Part shown: in pieces, positions 5,643 to 44,958 of the stretch | Numbering within the stretch: position 1 is the stretch's first letter | Layout: each line of letters starts with the position of its first letter | NCBI RefSeq assembly: GCF_054482525.1 | Contig: NZ_CM137006.1 | Length of the DNA stretch: 64,000 nucleotides | Direction: 5' to 3' (one strand) | Notes under the pieces: model-generated | What the model saw: only the letters and a program-made list of their open reading frames with translations | What the model was told of the DNA's origin: nothing | The model's database searches: none | Position numbers and translations under genes: made by a program

Positions 5643-6328
5643 ATAACCAGTATTTACAGTTTGTGCGTGAGCAGCTCATTATCGCCACCGCTGATTTGAG
5701 TGGGGCAACAAAAGGTCAGCTTGAAGCCTGGCAAGAGAATGCCATGTTCGATACAGGGCGTTACAGGCGAAAAAAAATCCGGTACCGCGATGAAGTGACT
5801 GGAAAAATGATAACGCGGGATAATCCACCAATCCCGGGAAAGCAATCGCTGGCGAAGGGGACGTCAATTCCTCTGGTCAGTCCGGTTGAGTTTTCGACAT
5901 CATCGTGGCGGCGGGCTGTTTTGTCTCTTGAAGAACATCATAAAGCCTGGTTGTTGTGGTGTTACAGCGGGAGTATTTGTTGGGAATATCAGATCGCGAT
6001 AACACAGTGGGCGTGGAATGAATTTAATACTCAATCCGGTACCAGAAAAATTGCAGGGAAAACGCAGGAACGCCTGAAAAAATTAATCTGGCTGGCGGCG
6101 CAGGCAGTAAAAGCAGAACTTTTTGGTGGGGAAGGTTATGAATACCAGGAGCTGGCATTACTGGCGGGAGTGACAACTAAAAACTGGTCCAAAACATTTA
6201 CTCGTCACTGGGTTGCAATGAAACACATTTTTCACCGACTTGATAGTGAGGCTTTATTGTTTGTAATGAGAACACGTTCAAAACAAAAGGCGGCATTTTC
6301 AAAGCAAAGTATTGCAAAAGTAGATTGA
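5633..6328 (+). CDS. Putative late-gene antiterminator (Q-like)
   Basis: 231 aa directly downstream of rusA and upstream of a terminator, tRNA cluster and lysis genes; assignment by position only. Confidence 0.45.
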   Translation: MRMNNQYLQFVREQLIIATADLSGATKGQLEAWQENAMFDTGRYRRKKIRYRDEVTGKMITRDNPPIPGKQSLAKGTSIPLVSPVEFSTSSWRRAVLSLEEHHKAWLLWCYSGSICWEYQIAITQWAWNEFNTQSGTRKIAGKTQERLKKLIWLAAQAVKAELFGGEGYEYQELALLAGVTTKNWSKTFTRHWVAMKHIFHRLDSEALLFVMRTRSKQKAAFSKQSIAKVD

Positions 6329-6393
6329 AAGGCATATATTTCATGCAAATCTGATATTTTGCCGATTTTGTACGTGATGGCAAAAGCAAACAA

Positions 6394-7343: not shown

Positions 7344-7694
7344 ATGACTCAAAACTATGAACTGATTGTGAAAGGGATCCGCAATTTTGAGAATAAAGTT
7401 ACGGTAACTTTAGCGTTACGGGACAAAAAACGCTTTGACGGCGAAATTTTTGACCTGGACATCTCGCTGGACCGTGTTGAAGGTGCCGCGCTGGAGTTTT
7501 ATGAGGCAGCAGCCAGAAGGAGCATCAGACAGGTCTTCCTGGATGTTGCTGCCGGGTTATGTGAAGGGGATGAGCAGTCGCCGGAAAAGCGCCCCGTAAT
7601 TTTAGAGGCGCAGAATGTGTGGATAACCTACAAAGGAAAGCTACCAGGAAGAATTACTGGTTCTCTGAAGACTCCTCCGGAATCACAACCTTAA
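7344..7694 (+). CDS. Hypothetical protein between holin and endolysin (YdfR/DUF1327-like by position)
   Basis: 116-aa ORF 4 nt after the holin stop; Qin prophage has ydfR in the same position. Confidence 0.4.
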   Translation: MTQNYELIVKGIRNFENKVTVTLALRDKKRFDGEIFDLDISLDRVEGAALEFYEAAARRSIRQVFLDVAAGLCEGDEQSPEKRPVILEAQNVWITYKGKLPGRITGSLKTPPESQP

Positions 7695-40733: not shown

Positions 40734-41585
40734 TTAACCCGCGTAAGCTGCCAGCATTTCCTGCGCCGCCAGTTTACCCAACGCATTCGCTGCGAAAGGA
40801 CTGTCGCCGGTGAGAACTTTACGGTCCTTATGTACTCGCCCGGTGATGTCGTCATTAATAATGTTCATGCCCATTTTCTTCAGCTCTTCGCCGAAGTACC
40901 AGGTGAGATGACCCGGCATATAGCCTATCTCTGGCGTTTGTTTGTCTGCGGCGTCTGGGAATGCGCAAATGGAATAACCATTCAGTGGGTTATCGCCGTG
41001 GCGAAGCGCCAGAAATGCCGCCGGGCCGTGGCAAAGGGAGATAACAAAACGGTCATTTTTGATTGCCCACTGTAAAGCGGCAGCCACGTTCTGGCTTTCT
41101 GGTAAACCAATAAGTGCGCCATGACCACCAGGAACAAAGATTGCTGCATATTCGCTGTCAGCGTTGAGGCTGGCGACAACATCCGCGAGTTTCTTCGGAT
41201 TGCGGAACAACGATTTATGCTGCTCAAAGAATGGCATTACTTTTTCATCTTTGTGCGGCATAGCCCAGTATTCAAACTTGGTCATCAGACCGGAAATGGT
41301 CGCCACTTCGAATTCGAAACCTGCAGCGTGGAGATGATACAACGGCAGCAACGTTTCAATCGGATGGTTACCGGTCGAGAACAGTTTTCCGTTATCGGTC
41401 GGCAAATAACGTTCGTCCGCGGCGATCACCAGAATTTTATGTTTACCGCGATACGGTTTTGGATAGTCCACGCCATCAAGATCAGAGACAGGACTGGTAT
41501 ATTGGCTAAGCGAATATTCTGAAGGGAAGAATGCATTATCTTCAGCAATATCGACCTGCGGATTTTTACTTGTTTGAACAGTCAT
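40734..41585 (-). CDS. hchA: Hsp31 glyoxalase/chaperone HchA
   Basis: 283 aa, DJ-1/PfpI fold motifs. Confidence 0.9.
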   Translation of the reverse strand: MTVQTSKNPQVDIAEDNAFFPSEYSLSQYTSPVSDLDGVDYPKPYRGKHKILVIAADERYLPTDNGKLFSTGNHPIETLLPLYHLHAAGFEFEVATISGLMTKFEYWAMPHKDEKVMPFFEQHKSLFRNPKKLADVVASLNADSEYAAIFVPGGHGALIGLPESQNVAAALQWAIKNDRFVISLCHGPAAFLALRHGDNPLNGYSICAFPDAADKQTPEIGYMPGHLTWYFGEELKKMGMNIINDDITGRVHKDRKVLTGDSPFAANALGKLAAQEMLAAYAG

Positions 41586-42176
41586 AGTGTATTCCTTATT
41601 GTTGCTTAGTTAGGGTAGTCACTATATTTGCGACTGAGCTGGTCGTTATTTTTACCCAGTCTGGAAAATTGAGTCAATATATCGAAAGCGGTAGTCGGCG
41701 GGCGTAAGTATGTAATGATGATGCTGCACTGGTGTTGAATATTATTCACGCCAAATTTTCCTTATGGAGCAACGCCGTCGCAAGTGGCCTCAATGATTTT
41801 AGACCATTATCAGAGGTCCGGGGCGGCAGGGAGAGATTTAATGTTGTGGAATATTGTGGTGCTGATGAATATTTATATCGCGGATTGGTAGAGAAAAAGC
41901 TTTTTTCATGCACTATTTTTGCAAATATTTCTATATGGACGGCGGTTTTGTTGCGGATTAATTCATAAAGAAATGCATTTGGGTGTTGGCTGGAAGAGAC
42001 GCTGGTAGATTTTATTGAGCCAGGAGGGGCGGGGTAATGTGCTGTATCGATATGCTTTGGCAATTGCGTGTGCCGCAGATGGAGATGAAATGCCAATAAA
42101 AAAGCCTGAGTTCGATGAGGGACGAACTCAGGCTATTGTTAAGTTTTACAGTAACACGCCACGGCGCGTTGGCTGA

Positions 42177-43292
42177 TTAGAACTGGTAGACGATACCAAC
42201 TGCAAACTGGTCATCAGCTGCTGCGCCAGTAATGGCGGCGTCATCTTTATCCAGCATGTTGAATTTGTATGCAGTATAAACGTTCATGTTCTTATTGAAG
42301 TAGTACCAGGTACCAACTTCAATGTAGTTCACACGGTCAGCGTCAACATATCTATGTCCAGGTACACCTTTGATATCTTTACCTTTAGAATACACATAAC
42401 CTAAGGACGGACGCAGACCAAAGTCGAATTGATACTGAACAACCGCTTCAAAGTTCTGGGTTTCATTGATAAGTTGATCACGCATTATTGTATTGCCTTC
42501 TCGATCGGCAACACCTGTATCAATAGAACTCGGAGTCATATTACGAGTTTCACCGTACATTACAGCTGCGTAGACATTGTTCGCGTCATACTTTGCAGCC
42601 AATGACCACAGTTCAGCATTTGAACCGTTTCCATCGGCAACTTGATCGTTGGTGCGATCAGATTTGCTATATGCACCAACGATACCAAAACCATTGATGT
42701 TATAGTCTACAGACAACGCATAGCCGTCACCATTTTGTTTCTTAGTGCTACGGTTGCTGTTTTTGCCTTGGTACTGAATCGCAAAATCAAGACCATCAAC
42801 CAGACCAAAGAAATCAGAGTTACGGTAGGTTGCAACACCGTTGGTACGACCGTTCATGAAGTTGTCAGCGGACGCCCAGGAATCACCACCCCATTCAACT
42901 AACATATCGGTATAAGCTGCGGCATCATAAGCAACACCGTAGTTACGACCATAGTCGAAAGATCCTAACTCGTTATATTTCAAACCTGCGAAGGTTAAAC
43001 GGGTTTTTTCCTGATTAGAGCCTTCGGGCTTGCTGGCGTCGAGGTTGTATTCAAACTGACCAAAACCAGTCAGTTCGCTGGTGATTTGGGTTTCACCTTT
43101 AACACCGAAACGAGCATAGGAGGTATCTTCGTTTTCGCTGTTATTATCATCAGTATTTGACCAGATGCGTTCGCCAACCATCTTGCCGTAGAAATCAACT
43201 TTATTGCCATCTTTATTATAAATTTCAGCCGCATTTGCTGCGCCAGCAACTAATAACGCCGGGACCAGCATTGCCAGAACTTTTCTTTTCAT
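42177..43292 (-). CDS. yedS: OmpC-family general porin (yedS locus), apparently intact
   Basis: Signal peptide [21 protein letters not shown]; porin motifs; C-terminal ...VYQF; lies between hchA and yedR. Confidence 0.8.
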
Positions 43293-43839
43293 TATGTATT
43301 CCCTTGTGATTATAATCTTCATGAATATATCAATAAGTGCTGTTATCCAAAAAAAAGCACATTTGGATACTATTCTATGAAGTTCATTTTATTTTAAAGA
43401 TTACATGTAACAAATGTATTTAAAAGATTTCAAAATGTTTCCAATCTATTTAATATAATTCAGAATTATGAATTCTAAATATAAGCATTCATGAAAATTA
43501 TAAATACATATCAATATGTTATGAGTTGAGCGGAAATATAGGGGGTATCAATGATTGTTGCGCCAAACGGCTGGTGTGATCACGCGCACATTAATGAAGA
43601 CATAAAAAAAGCCGGCATCATGCCGGCCCAAAAAATATAAACAAGACGATAAAAGGCTAATAACGGAAGCATCATGACACAGAATAATAAAAAGGGATAA
43701 TTGTAATCAGTGCTAATATATTGATCGAATGAATTAATAAAGCCGATATCAAAGATAAATAAAATCGCTCAAAACGATTTTTCCTGTATTCACTGCCATT
43801 GCGCAAAAATTATCTATTTGTTCAAAAAATGATTGAGTC

Positions 43840-44223
43840 TTGACTGGCTCATCCAATGTGGAAAAATGTGACTTTTATCACATAATAGTACTAAGTCTGA
43901 ATTTTCCGGGTTATCTCAAAATGGAATACGGTTCGACAAAGATGGAAGAGAGACTCTCTCGCAGCCCTGGTGGCAAATTGGCTTTGTGGGCTTTCTATAC
44001 ATGGTGTGGCTATTTTGTCTGGGCAATGGCGCGTTACATCTGGGTGATGAGCCGGATCCCCGATGCCCCCGTGTCGGGATTTGAAAGCGATTTAGGCTCT
44101 ACCGCGGGAAAGTGGTTAGGGGCACTGGTCGGCTTTTTATTTATGGCTCTGGTCGGGGCATTGTTAGGCAGCATTGCCTGGTACACCCGACCTCGTCCCG
44201 CACGCAGCAGACGCTATGAATAA
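43840..44223 (+). CDS. yedR: Inner membrane protein YedR (start uncertain)
   Basis: 127-aa ORF with TM segments; assigned by synteny. Confidence 0.5.
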   Translation: MTGSSNVEKCDFYHIIVLSLNFPGYLKMEYGSTKMEERLSRSPGGKLALWAFYTWCGYFVWAMARYIWVMSRIPDAPVSGFESDLGSTAGKWLGALVGFLFMALVGALLGSIAWYTRPRPARSRRYE

Positions 44224-44262
44224 AAACTGCTAATGTTGCGACTCTTTGGCAACGGAGCGCGT

Positions 44263-44958
44263 ATGGACTTACAACACTGGCAGACACAGTTCGAAAACTG
44301 GTTGAAAAACCATCATCAGCACCAGGACGCGGCCCATGACGTGTGTCATTTTCGCCGCGTCTGGGCTACGGCACAGAAGCTGGCGGCAGATGACGATGTC
44401 GATATGCTGGTGATTTTAACCGCCTGTTATTTTCACGATATTGTGAGCCTGGCGAAAAATCATCCACAACGGCAGCATTCTTCAATCCTGGCGGCAGAAG
44501 AGACGCGTCGCCTGCTCCGTGAAGAGTTCGTGCAATTTCCGGCGGAGAAAATCGAGGCCGTTTGTCATGCCATTGCCGCTCACAGTTTCAGCGCGCAAAT
44601 CGCCCCCTTAACAACGGAAGCTAAAATCGTCCAGGATGCGGATCGGCTGGAAGCCCTGGGGGCGATTGGCCTGGCGCGCGTGTTTGCTGTTTCAGGGGCA
44701 TTGGGCGTGGCGCTGTTTGATGGTGAAGATCCGTTCGCACAGCATCGCCCGCTTGATGATAAACGCTACGCGCTGGATCATTTCCAGACTAAGTTGCTGA
44801 AGCTACCGCAAACCATGCAAACCGCAAGAGGCAAGCAGCTGGCGCAGCACAACGCGCAATTTTTAGTCGAGTTTATGGCGAAGCTCAGTGCCGAACTGGC
44901 GGGGGAGAATGAAGGTGTCGATCACAAGGTGATAGATGCGTTTTCACCCGCGGGCTGA
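44263..44958 (+). CDS. yedJ: HD-domain phosphohydrolase YedJ
   Basis: HD motif (CYFHDIV); synteny upstream of dcm. Confidence 0.8.

Follow-up and report, generated by a model that had tools for sequence, protein, structure and literature searches.

The porin locus

The window, by which we mean the whole stretch of 64,000 nucleotides that was analysed (contig NZ_CM137006.1 of RefSeq assembly GCF_054482525.1), carries a porin gene between hchA (40734-41585, minus strand) and drpB, also named yedR (43942-44223, plus strand). An initial annotation of this DNA had placed a full-length porin open reading frame between hchA and yedR, and its coordinates proved exact. The list of open reading frames and the translation give 371 codons and a TAA stop at 42177-43292 on the minus strand, and the reading frame contains no frameshift or internal stop. 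The chromosome of E. coli PCN033 (NZ_CP006632.1) is 100% identical to the window and annotates the gene as "porin" (WP_000824360.1). The features of the locus are collected in Table 1.

Table 1. Features of the porin locus, in window coordinates
Feature	Position	Strand	Description and evidence
Porin intrinsic terminator	42103..42134	-	12-bp stem with 7 GC pairs, followed by TTTTTATT; terminator scan
Porin CDS	42177..43292	-	371 aa + TAA; PGAP "porin", WP_000824360.1; Pfam Porin_1 match; PCN033 annotation; AF2 barrel
Hyper-divergent mature-porin segment	42177..43194	-	pi 0.18-0.45 vs 0-0.12 in flanks (50-nt bins, 9 strains)
Loop L6 codons, aa 254-276	42465..42533	-	14-aa extension without class B counterpart; class A/B alignment indel
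Intragenic recombination breakpoint (approximate)	42790..42803	-	CDS nt ~490-503; 5' part class B, 3' part class A
Loop L3 codons, aa 121-152	42837..42932	-	motif VEWGGD (OmpK35 type), not PEFGGD; porin alignment
Signal-peptide codons, aa 1-21	43230..43292	-	residue 22 aligns to residue 1 of mature chains 5o77_A and 1opf_A
Porin promoter/leader region	43293..43603	-	27.7% GC; candidate sigma-70 promoter 43413-43386, TTGTTA-16-TAAAAT
CRP-like palindrome	43575..43590	.	TGTGATCACGCGCACA; pattern match; between rseX and porin promoter
rseX sRNA gene	43604..43693	-	Rfam RF01401, full length, 97.7 bits (gathering 50), E 1.4e-13
rseX intrinsic terminator	43609..43629	-	9-bp stem with 6 GC pairs, T7 run; terminator scan; 3' hairpin of the Rfam alignment

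An alternative in-frame ATG lies at 43322, 10 codons upstream, but the start at 43292 is favoured by an AAGGGA Shine-Dalgarno sequence 7 nt before it, by the choice made in PGAP and by the alignment of the mature N-terminus to solved structures. The signal peptide and C-terminal phenylalanine described in the initial annotation were both borne out. Residue 22, the first of the mature N-terminus AEIYNK, lines up with residue 1 in the crystal chains of mature OmpK35 and OmpF, and cleavage would occur at an A-x-A site, between ANA and AE (...AGAANA/AEIYNK). The protein ends in ...VGIVYQF, in which the terminal Phe is the aromatic residue expected of a BAM beta-signal. The intrinsic terminator of the gene is kept across strains (pi 0.012).

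Family, fold and predicted pore

The match to Pfam PF00267 (Porin_1) spans positions 1-337 of the 337 in the profile and scores 399 bits (E 2.8e-119; gathering score 23.7), well outside what chance would give. Scores against the more specific NCBIfam models fall below the cut-offs for the OmpC subfamily (NF007841, 418.9 bits vs 484), the OmpF equivalog (NF007446, 454 vs 583) and the PhoE equivalog (NF007544, 416.9 vs 599). The label "OmpC-family" in the initial annotation was therefore too specific: sequence and structure matches put OmpK35 and Omp35 nearest among characterized proteins, PhoE and OmpF next, and OmpC further away. The best sequence match to a solved structure is OmpK35 (9hn1, E 4e-146), and identity is 63-66% to OmpK35, 60.3% to OmpF and 57.2% to OmpC.

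The AlphaFold2 (AF2) model of the protein is a 16-strand barrel with an internal loop L3 (pLDDT 78.6), in which some loops are of moderate confidence and residues 240-287, in the L6 region, form a long beta-hairpin. A Foldseek search with this model gave TM scores of 0.93 to OmpK35 (5o77) and 0.89 to OmpF (1opf), with Omp35 (5o78) among the best PDB matches. In an alignment to OmpF, OmpC, PhoE and OmpK35 all six residues of the constriction zone are kept: K37, R61, R98 and R149 correspond to K16, R42, R82 and R132 of OmpF, and D129 and E133 to its D113 and E117.

OmpK35 of Klebsiella pneumoniae (5o77, 9hn1) and Omp35 of K. aerogenes (5o78) are OmpF-type general porins with solved structures. 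The window porin resembles OmpK35 in being its best match in sequence and fold, in the L3 motif, in the constriction residues and in its predicted 16-strand barrel. It differs in having longer L1 and L6 loops, the latter including the 14-aa extension that class B alleles lack, and in its position: OmpK35 occupies the ompF locus, between asnS and aspC, whereas the window porin lies between hchA and drpB, not in the asnS-ompF-aspC context. With E. coli OmpF, OmpC and PhoE it shares the Pfam family, predicted topology, constriction residues and a C-terminal YQF, but at 57-60% identity it falls below the three NCBIfam cut-offs, lies at another locus and is probably regulated differently.

Taken together, these results make it very probable that the gene at the hchA-[porin]-rseX-drpB locus, the position of yedS in K-12, codes for a functional-looking general-diffusion porin of the classical kind, with a barrel of 16 beta-strands. 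The protein would be exported by Sec and inserted by the BAM complex, presumably as a trimer, to form a non-specific hydrophilic channel like that of OmpK35 or OmpF. As the initial annotation proposed, an additional porin at this site could plausibly affect permeability and serve as a phage receptor.

Upstream region, rseX and regulation

The region upstream of the porin gene (43293-43839) is AT-rich, as had been noted, at 29.4% GC compared to 50.4% for the whole window. It also holds a separate gene, the sRNA gene rseX, which has its own terminator; this terminator sets rseX apart from the porin transcription unit. The gene shares the strand of the porin, lies on its upstream side and is the counterpart of K-12 rseX (b4603), which is found between drpB and yedS. 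A search of 41500-44300 with Rfam at a permissive threshold returned nothing credible besides rseX, the STnc430 and RyhB hits being sub-threshold overlaps of the rseX terminator. RseX is an Hfq-binding sRNA reported to repress ompC and ompA (PMC8313858, PMC3617542). It is undetectable in wild-type K-12, where H-NS represses "RseX and surrounding areas" (PMC8313858).

The leader of the porin gene is strongly conserved. Nucleotide diversity among nine strains is 0-0.012 over 43393-43245, so that the ~100 nt nearest the porin are nearly invariant in E. coli, and of the 4879 genomes that match region 43230-43400, 4877 do so at 95% identity or more. Transcription would start in this 28% GC leader. 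The candidate sigma-70 promoter listed in Table 1 was chosen only because it lies on the border of the invariant leader; a scan for such promoters found seven sites where 7.0 were expected, which is not above chance. At 43438-43428 the leader agrees over 11 nt, without a mismatch, with the core of the ompC C1 box, and the best match to a 20-mer OmpR box is 13/20, a value reached by 458 of 1000 shuffles of the AT-rich sequence. A preprint (PMC12871828) lists the K-12 site equivalent to the CRP-like palindrome (2033766, labelled yedS) among in-vitro CRP footprints, and the mRNA of K-12 yedS, under the name ompS1, is among the outer-membrane protein transcripts repressed upon sigma-E induction (PMC2731931).

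Pairing of the MicF 5' seed (nt 1-40, K-12) with positions -120 to +60 of the porin gene was not significant (-12.6 kcal/mol, z = +0.55; of 300 shuffles, 204 did at least as well), while the positive control, ompF, gave -27.4 kcal/mol (z = -4.6, 0 of 300 shuffles). Folding of full-length MicF or RseX with the porin region produced unrealistic long-range duplexes and no signal. A functional YedS under MicF and MarA control reportedly affects carbapenem susceptibility, in work of 2013 by Warner and colleagues; since the leader shows no significant pairing with the MicF seed, the MicF control reported for YedS was not reproduced in silico. The YedS of that work may have belonged to the K-12-type lineage described below.

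The arrangement recalls quiescent porins with linked anti-porin sRNAs (ompN-micC and ompC-micF, and OmpS1 and OmpS2 of Salmonella), in that a minor porin adjoins an sRNA that represses outer-membrane proteins and has an AT-rich upstream region, plausibly an H-NS target. Unlike micC and micF, rseX precedes the porin and points the same way, so that the two genes are not divergent. Quiescent porins are characterized by low expression in standard culture, which is relieved when H-NS or StpA is lost or through LeuO or OmpR. LeuO, OmpR and H-NS may control the window porin gene. Its leader is probably silenced by H-NS in laboratory culture, as is reported of K-12 for rseX and the DNA next to it, and a gene silenced in this way would supply a spare or alternative porin of importance in cells with little OmpF and OmpC.

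Two porin lineages at one site

The initial annotation gave yedS as a disrupted pseudogene in K-12, and this is correct: gene b4496 of NC_000913.3 carries the PGAP note "frameshifted; internal stop". It also implied that the window gene is the intact form of yedS. An intact general-porin gene does occupy the same position, but its equivalence to K-12 yedS is positional only. When the mature window porin was aligned to a reconstructed K-12 YedS and to OmpF and OmpC, it proved to be of another lineage than K-12 YedS. Identity to the reconstruction is 59.9%, and the two proteins fall in separate clades by the identity matrix and an NJ tree. They also differ in length (371 aa vs ~396 aa) and in the L3 motif (VEWGGD vs PEFGGD).

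Intact alleles of the K-12 type, 395-404 aa long, are found elsewhere: strain 19AR0254 has one of 404 aa, and a form of 395 aa is very common. The reconstruction is 86.5% identical to one of these, intact allele F. Proteins of this type, also annotated as "outer membrane protein S1" or "porin OmpC", are OmpN/OmpC-like, carry PEFGGD and pass the OmpC cut-off of 484 (542 and 520 bits), and the window porin differs from them in these respects.

Divergence between the window and K-12 is confined to one part of the locus, with ~60-70% identity in the segment encoding the mature protein and 95-100% outside it. The signal-peptide codons are identical in nine of the nine strains compared (pi = 0). The window gene thus shares with K-12 yedS its slot, leader, signal peptide, terminator and rseX neighbour, and since leader, terminator and neighbour are shared, regulation presumably is as well. 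The locus holds two deep porin lineages in E. coli, one OmpK35-like (the window porin) and one OmpN/OmpC-like (the K-12 pseudogene), which share a near-invariant leader and signal peptide, with the mature-protein segment alone swapped.

Mosaic alleles and selection

Variation within the OmpK35-like genes points to recombination. Over the 760 nt that were compared, the window CDS has two differences from that of RM10466 (class B) in nt 1-503 and 54 in nt 504-760, whereas 18 of its 19 differences from that of EC476 (class A) fall within nt 171-489 and one after. The PCN033 allele is thus a mosaic in which a class B 5' part is joined to a class A 3' part.

The divergence of these genes is accompanied by signs of constraint. 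The dN/dS ratio of the window porin is 0.081 against a class A allele and 0.143 against class B, and 0.078-0.119 against orthologs from E. fergusonii, Citrobacter, Enterobacter and K. oxytoca; overall the values span 0.08-0.18, a range that indicates purifying selection. Amino acid identity is 0.42 in loops vs 0.81 in strands. Loops L4-L8 account for most of the variation, and L6 is only 12% identical, with 53% gaps, among 34 homologs of the window lineage (lineage 1). Such loop diversification would reflect selection by phages, colicins or antibody.

Occurrence in E. coli and other species

An intact gene at the yedS site is common in E. coli and not exceptional. A segment specific to class A is present at 95% identity or more in 900 of 5426 complete genomes, including ST131 and O104:H4 strains, these allele frequencies being estimates from BLAST summaries. 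The exact protein occurs on 288 contigs, within a cluster of 1321 members. The locus is also disrupted in various ways in this species, by K-12 and O157-type pseudogenes, an IS110-family insertion, deletion and prophage insertion, and the leader is absent from ~10% of genomes.

Both lineages are also found at the site in other Escherichia species: E. albertii has the K-12-type lineage (lineage 2), and E. fergusonii and an E. marmotae-type contig have lineage 1. Lineage 1 is also the syntenic occupant in Citrobacter, Enterobacter and K. oxytoca, where the genes adjoin yedJ, drpB, dcm and vsr instead of occupying the ompF locus. Outside Escherichia, the closest relatives come from Citrobacter (77.7%), E. 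hormaechei (77.4%) and K. oxytoca (72.9%). The rseX gene was found only in Escherichia (E. coli and E. fergusonii), with none at the Citrobacter, Enterobacter and K. oxytoca loci. Judging from only five loci outside E. coli, the OmpK35-like lineage may be ancestral at the locus. An origin of the two lineages by tandem duplication and differential loss found no support: E. fergusonii does have a second porin downstream, but its signal peptide is of the NmpC/Lc type, and its identity to the porins compared is 54-65% throughout (63% for reconstructed K-12 YedS).

Alternative explanations

The simplest explanation, that the window gene is K-12 yedS without its frameshift and stop, is very improbable and in its strict sense refuted. 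It accounts for the common position, the identical upstream region and signal peptide and the 95-100% identity of the downstream flank, but the mature protein is about as far from K-12 YedS as from OmpF and OmpC, belongs to another clade and differs in length and L3 motif. A grossly wrong reconstruction of the K-12 protein is disfavoured by its similarity to allele F, and true intact K-12-type alleles pass the OmpC cut-off that the window porin fails. We also regard as unlikely the recent import of a foreign ompF/ompK35-type gene, for example from Klebsiella, Citrobacter or Enterobacter, in which homologous recombination at the conserved ends of the porin would have displaced native yedS. Such an event is suggested by the cross-genus relatives just named, by the sharp boundaries of divergence at conserved N- and C-terminal codons, by the mosaic alleles and by the GC content of the CDS (43.5%, vs 50.4% for the window). 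Against it, the relatives in other genera occupy the same syntenic locus, the lineage is present in E. fergusonii and on the E. marmotae-type contig, and true OmpK35 sits at asnS-porin-aspC; moreover, the best cross-genus match is ~78% with saturated dS (1.5-1.8), and so no recent donor is visible.

That the gene is intact but dead, a permanently silent relic without a role, still whole only because its inactivation was recent, is quite unlikely. The AT-rich leader, the frequent loss or disruption of the locus in E. coli (including the genomes without the leader) and the silence of rseX, undetectable and H-NS-repressed in wild-type K-12 (PMC8313858), would agree with such a history. The low dN/dS, however, holds across divergences up to saturated dS, the pore-lining residues and beta-signal are fully conserved, the leader is nearly invariant, and the allele class is retained in ~900 complete genomes of unrelated lineages. 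In addition, surface proteomics of an O26:H11 strain detected a putative porin, given as 50% homologous to K-12 YedS (PMC9731836), which may be of this lineage. A substrate-biased channel, such as a PhoE-like anion/phosphate porin, is very improbable. PhoE-annotated structures are among the top sequence matches (5o78_A) and the PhoE score (417) is near that for OmpC, but the PhoE cut-off of 599 is missed, a Gly (FMNGRTN) aligns with the L3 lysine of PhoE (FMTKRAS), and the remaining constriction is of the OmpF/OmpK35 type. That lysine, K125, has a role in anion selectivity.

For the locus as a whole, a long-lived, possibly trans-species balanced polymorphism is a further reading, possible though less likely than not. 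At the hchA-[porin]-rseX-drpB site, beside an sRNA that represses OmpC and OmpA, two ~60%-identical lineages and several sub-classes shuffled by intragenic recombination would be exchanged as cassettes for the mature protein, with promoter, leader and signal peptide held invariant. If this balanced polymorphism is real, strains carry different reserve porins under common control, and the allele sets their susceptibility to phages, colicins and beta-lactams once the major porins are down-regulated.

Significance

The window porin is an ordinary, annotated and common E. coli gene at an unusually variable locus. As a single gene it matters little; a link between a functional YedS and carbapenem susceptibility has been reported before. 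The more general point is that "yedS" is not one gene: use of K-12 YedS as the reference mis-describes about half of E. coli strains, among them ST131, O104:H4 and porcine ExPEC, whose OmpK35-like protein shares only 60% identity with that of K-12. This choice of reference affects work on resistance, vaccines and phage receptors. In Klebsiella, channels of the OmpK35 type are the wide ones that let beta-lactams through, and the cassette that a strain carries could therefore affect residual permeability where OmpF and OmpC are missing. With hyper-variable loops and mosaic alleles behind an invariant leader, the locus offers a natural system for diversifying selection on outer-membrane proteins in which regulation is held constant.

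An intact porin gene at the yedS locus

The window matches the chromosome of E. coli PCN033 at 100% identity. That strain is a porcine extraintestinal pathogen (serotype O11, phylogroup D; PMC4578781). The initial annotation had described an intact, full-length porin between hchA and yedR, and both the feature and its location proved genuine; the strand, which it did not state, is given with the other features in the table below. A search for an overlooked frameshift or stop in the 371 codons found the ORF uninterrupted. The protein matches the entire Pfam Porin_1 profile (399 bits) and has the signal peptide (21 aa, followed by AEIYNK) and C-terminal Phe (VGIVYQF) that had been described. As the initial annotation also stated, yedS in the same slot of K-12 is a pseudogene, with a frameshift and an internal stop. 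The window gene carries the PGAP (NCBI) label "porin" (WP_000824360.1); it is an ordinary, already annotated, common gene whose product, itself uncharacterized, belongs to the general porin family.

Features of the porin locus (window positions)
Feature	Position	Strand	Remarks
hchA	40734-41585	-	flank of porin
Porin terminator	42134-42103	-	porin's own
Porin ORF	42177-43292	-	371 codons + stop
Invariant leader motif	43343-43330	-	14 nt, ACAGCACTTATTGA
Candidate promoter	43413-43386		upstream edge of invariant leader
CRP-like imperfect palindrome	43575-43590		TGTGATCACGCGCACA
rseX sRNA gene	43604-43693	-	same strand as porin; Rfam 97.7 bits, E 1.4e-13
rseX terminator	43629-43609	-	strong; ends rseX
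Perfect CRP-type palindrome	43867-43882		TGTGACTTTTATCACA, ~60 nt upstream of annotated drpB start
drpB/yedR	43942-44223	+	flank of porin

The region between hchA and the porin (41586-42176) contains 166 G versus 90 C. Strand asymmetry is strong at 41700-42100 (GC skew up to +0.44), where no Rfam match was found. Only short, poorly conserved ORFs are present; the PGAP annotation of strain EC476 has a hypothetical protein of 95 aa in this region, which is cut short in the window by an earlier stop.

Two porin lineages at one locus

When the window was aligned to the K-12 locus, both flanks and the signal-peptide codons were 95-100% identical, whereas the mature-protein codons shared only ~60-70% identity, with many indels. 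Protein identity is 59.9% to the reconstructed K-12 YedS, 60.3% to OmpF, 58.4% to PhoE and 57.2% to OmpC; by this measure K-12 YedS is no nearer to the window protein than the other three. In a neighbor-joining tree, the alleles from this single locus form two deep groups. We define "lineage 1" as the OmpK35-like alleles: class A (the window protein, 371 aa), class B (357 aa, 90.8% identical to the window protein), class P0016 (80.6%) and classes D and E (352 aa, 68%). "Lineage 2", which is OmpN/OmpC-like, holds the K-12 and O157-type pseudogenes, intact alleles of 387 and 404 aa, and a 395-aa form from a protein search. Intact K-12-type proteins of 395 aa were very common in that search, under the names "yedS", "outer membrane protein S1" and "porin OmpC".

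NCBI curated models divide the alleles in the same way as the tree. Lineage-2 alleles pass the OmpC subfamily cut-off of 484 (542 and 520 bits), whereas the window protein (419), class B (432) and class D (388) fail it, and also fail OmpF and PhoE. The name "OmpC-family" therefore suits the K-12-type allele only. The earlier reading of the gene as an OmpC-family porin, the intact form of the K-12 pseudogene, holds for chromosomal position but not for the protein, which belongs to the other lineage.

Outside E. coli, the closest relatives all occupy the equivalent syntenic position, adjoining yedJ, drpB, dcm and vsr (E. fergusonii, 85% identity; Citrobacter, 77.7%; E. hormaechei, 77.4%; K. oxytoca, 72.9%). 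True OmpK35 is found at the ompF locus (asnS-porin-aspC) rather than between hchA and drpB, and is thus the closest characterized relative, not a positional ortholog. At the yedS locus the allele of E. albertii is of lineage 2 and that of an E. marmotae-type contig is of class A, so both lineages occur at the site across the genus.

Between its yedS-locus porin and hchA, E. fergusonii (L025, 6663-9688) has a second porin gene (369 aa; signal peptide of NmpC/Lc type, beginning MKKLTVAVSAVAAS) and a TrkH-family gene, both missing from the examined E. coli loci. K. oxytoca (L023) lacks hchA-hprSR, and its porin is followed by two tRNA genes (6289-6375, 7367-7439) and a Peptidase_M90 (mtfA-like) gene, so where the locus ends on the right depends on the genus. 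One Citrobacter genome (L020) has an integrase gene on that side.

Upstream region and putative regulation

The upstream region (43293-43839) had been described as AT-rich, and its GC content is 29.4%, with a minimum of 22% among 200-nt bins, compared with 50.4% across the window; the porin leader is 27.7% GC. It holds more than a promoter, since the sRNA gene rseX lies inside it. Because rseX stops at a strong terminator, the porin needs a promoter of its own within 43293-43603. The candidate promoter falls in this interval, and promoter-like sites in the upstream region were no more frequent than chance in a promoter scan. E. fergusonii likewise has the sRNA gene upstream of its porin (L025, 4588-4686); no copy was detected at the porin loci of Citrobacter, Enterobacter or K. 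oxytoca. This pairing of a minor porin with an adjacent sRNA repressing other outer-membrane proteins has parallels in ompC-micF and ompN-micC (PMC3617542).

Absence of H-NS in K-12 is reported to de-repress "RseX and surrounding areas" (PMC8313858), and yedS mRNA (labelled ompS1) is reported to fall, with that of other porin genes, on sigma-E induction in K-12 (PMC2731931). A preprint lists an in-vitro CRP footprint at K-12 yedS (PMC12871828), the counterpart of the imperfect palindrome. Neither MicF seed pairing with the porin gene nor OmpR boxes in its upstream region gave a significant signal. The invariant leader motif matches the ompF 5' UTR sequence ACAGAACTTATTGA at 13 of 14 positions; with a blastn-short E-value of 0.19 the match may be due to chance, or it could reflect a shared sRNA or protein target.

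Evidence for function

Several results indicate a working porin gene. Comparison with another class-A allele gives a dN/dS of 0.08; class B gives 0.14, and the cross-genus orthologs, for which dS is saturated, give 0.08-0.12. An AlphaFold2 model is a 16-strand barrel (pLDDT 78.6) whose best solved-structure matches are OmpK35 (5o77, TM 0.93) and Omp35 (5o78). The constriction residues are all conserved (K37, R61, R98 and R149 opposite D129 and E133), and the L3 motif is VEWGGD, of the OmpK35 type, rather than PEFGGD. Among 34 lineage-1 homologs, identity to the window protein is 81% in strands and 42% in surface loops, with 12-16% in L6 and L7; L6 has a 14-aa extension that class B lacks and that is modelled as a long hairpin. 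Conserved strands and constriction with variable loops are the pattern that would be expected of an exposed, selected outer-membrane protein. A functional YedS, which may be of either lineage, reportedly affects carbapenem susceptibility, a result attributed to Warner et al. 2013. Surface proteomics of an O26:H11 strain is reported to have picked up a putative porin with a stated 50% homology to K-12 YedS (PMC9731836).

Prevalence and loss

The class-A-specific central segment is present at 95% identity or more in 900 of 5,426 complete genomes, including O25b:H4-ST131, O104:H4 and the porcine ExPEC strain PMV-1, and the exact window protein is found on 288 contigs. Roughly 55% of genomes matching the gene carry a lineage-1 "cassette" (the mature-protein coding part) and ~42% a lineage-2 cassette, as estimated from an evenly spaced ranking rather than a count.

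The locus is frequently damaged. Besides the K-12 and O157-type pseudogenes, examples include insertion of an IS110-family element, a deletion that extends to hprS, and a P2-like prophage lodged in the signal-peptide region. In E. coli 2012C-4502 (L017, 1798-3686) the prophage (ogr/Delta, late control D and tail genes) is inserted ~90 nt into the porin gene and leaves a signal-peptide stub only, which suggests that the conserved 5' end can act as a phage attachment site. The IS110-family case is Z1322HEC0010 (L010, 512-2401), where the porin has lost its 5' end to the transposase, and the deletion is that of 23CRST001 (L015, 1501-2362), which joins the truncated porin directly to hprS and removes hchA. 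Adjacent drpB is annotated as a pseudogene in FDAARGOS_943 (L012, 572-853; internal stop) and in O157-type FORC_044 (L013, 570-850; frameshift).

A variable cassette behind an invariant leader

Nucleotide diversity (pi) in a nine-strain alignment from hchA to drpB is 0-0.12 in the flanks and 0-0.012 over 43393-43245, which spans the proximal promoter, 5' leader and signal peptide; values of 0.18-0.45 occur solely within the cassette (43194-42177). A 171-nt leader and signal-peptide segment was found in 4,879 of the 5,426 complete genomes; in 4,877 of these its identity is 95% or higher, irrespective of cassette. Alleles at the locus are mosaic: the PCN033 gene has two differences from class B over CDS nt 1-503 and one from class A over nt 504-1116. 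This mosaic structure accounts for the small number of whole-gene matches at 99% or more (5 genomes) relative to matches of the central segment at that level (669).

What the locus shows is a porin cassette of two lineages, mosaic and variable in its loops, that follows an invariant leader. Among 35 papers mentioning yedS, none takes the two-lineage structure as the subject of its title or abstract. This cassette polymorphism goes beyond the original claim of an intact porin and is the more interesting point.
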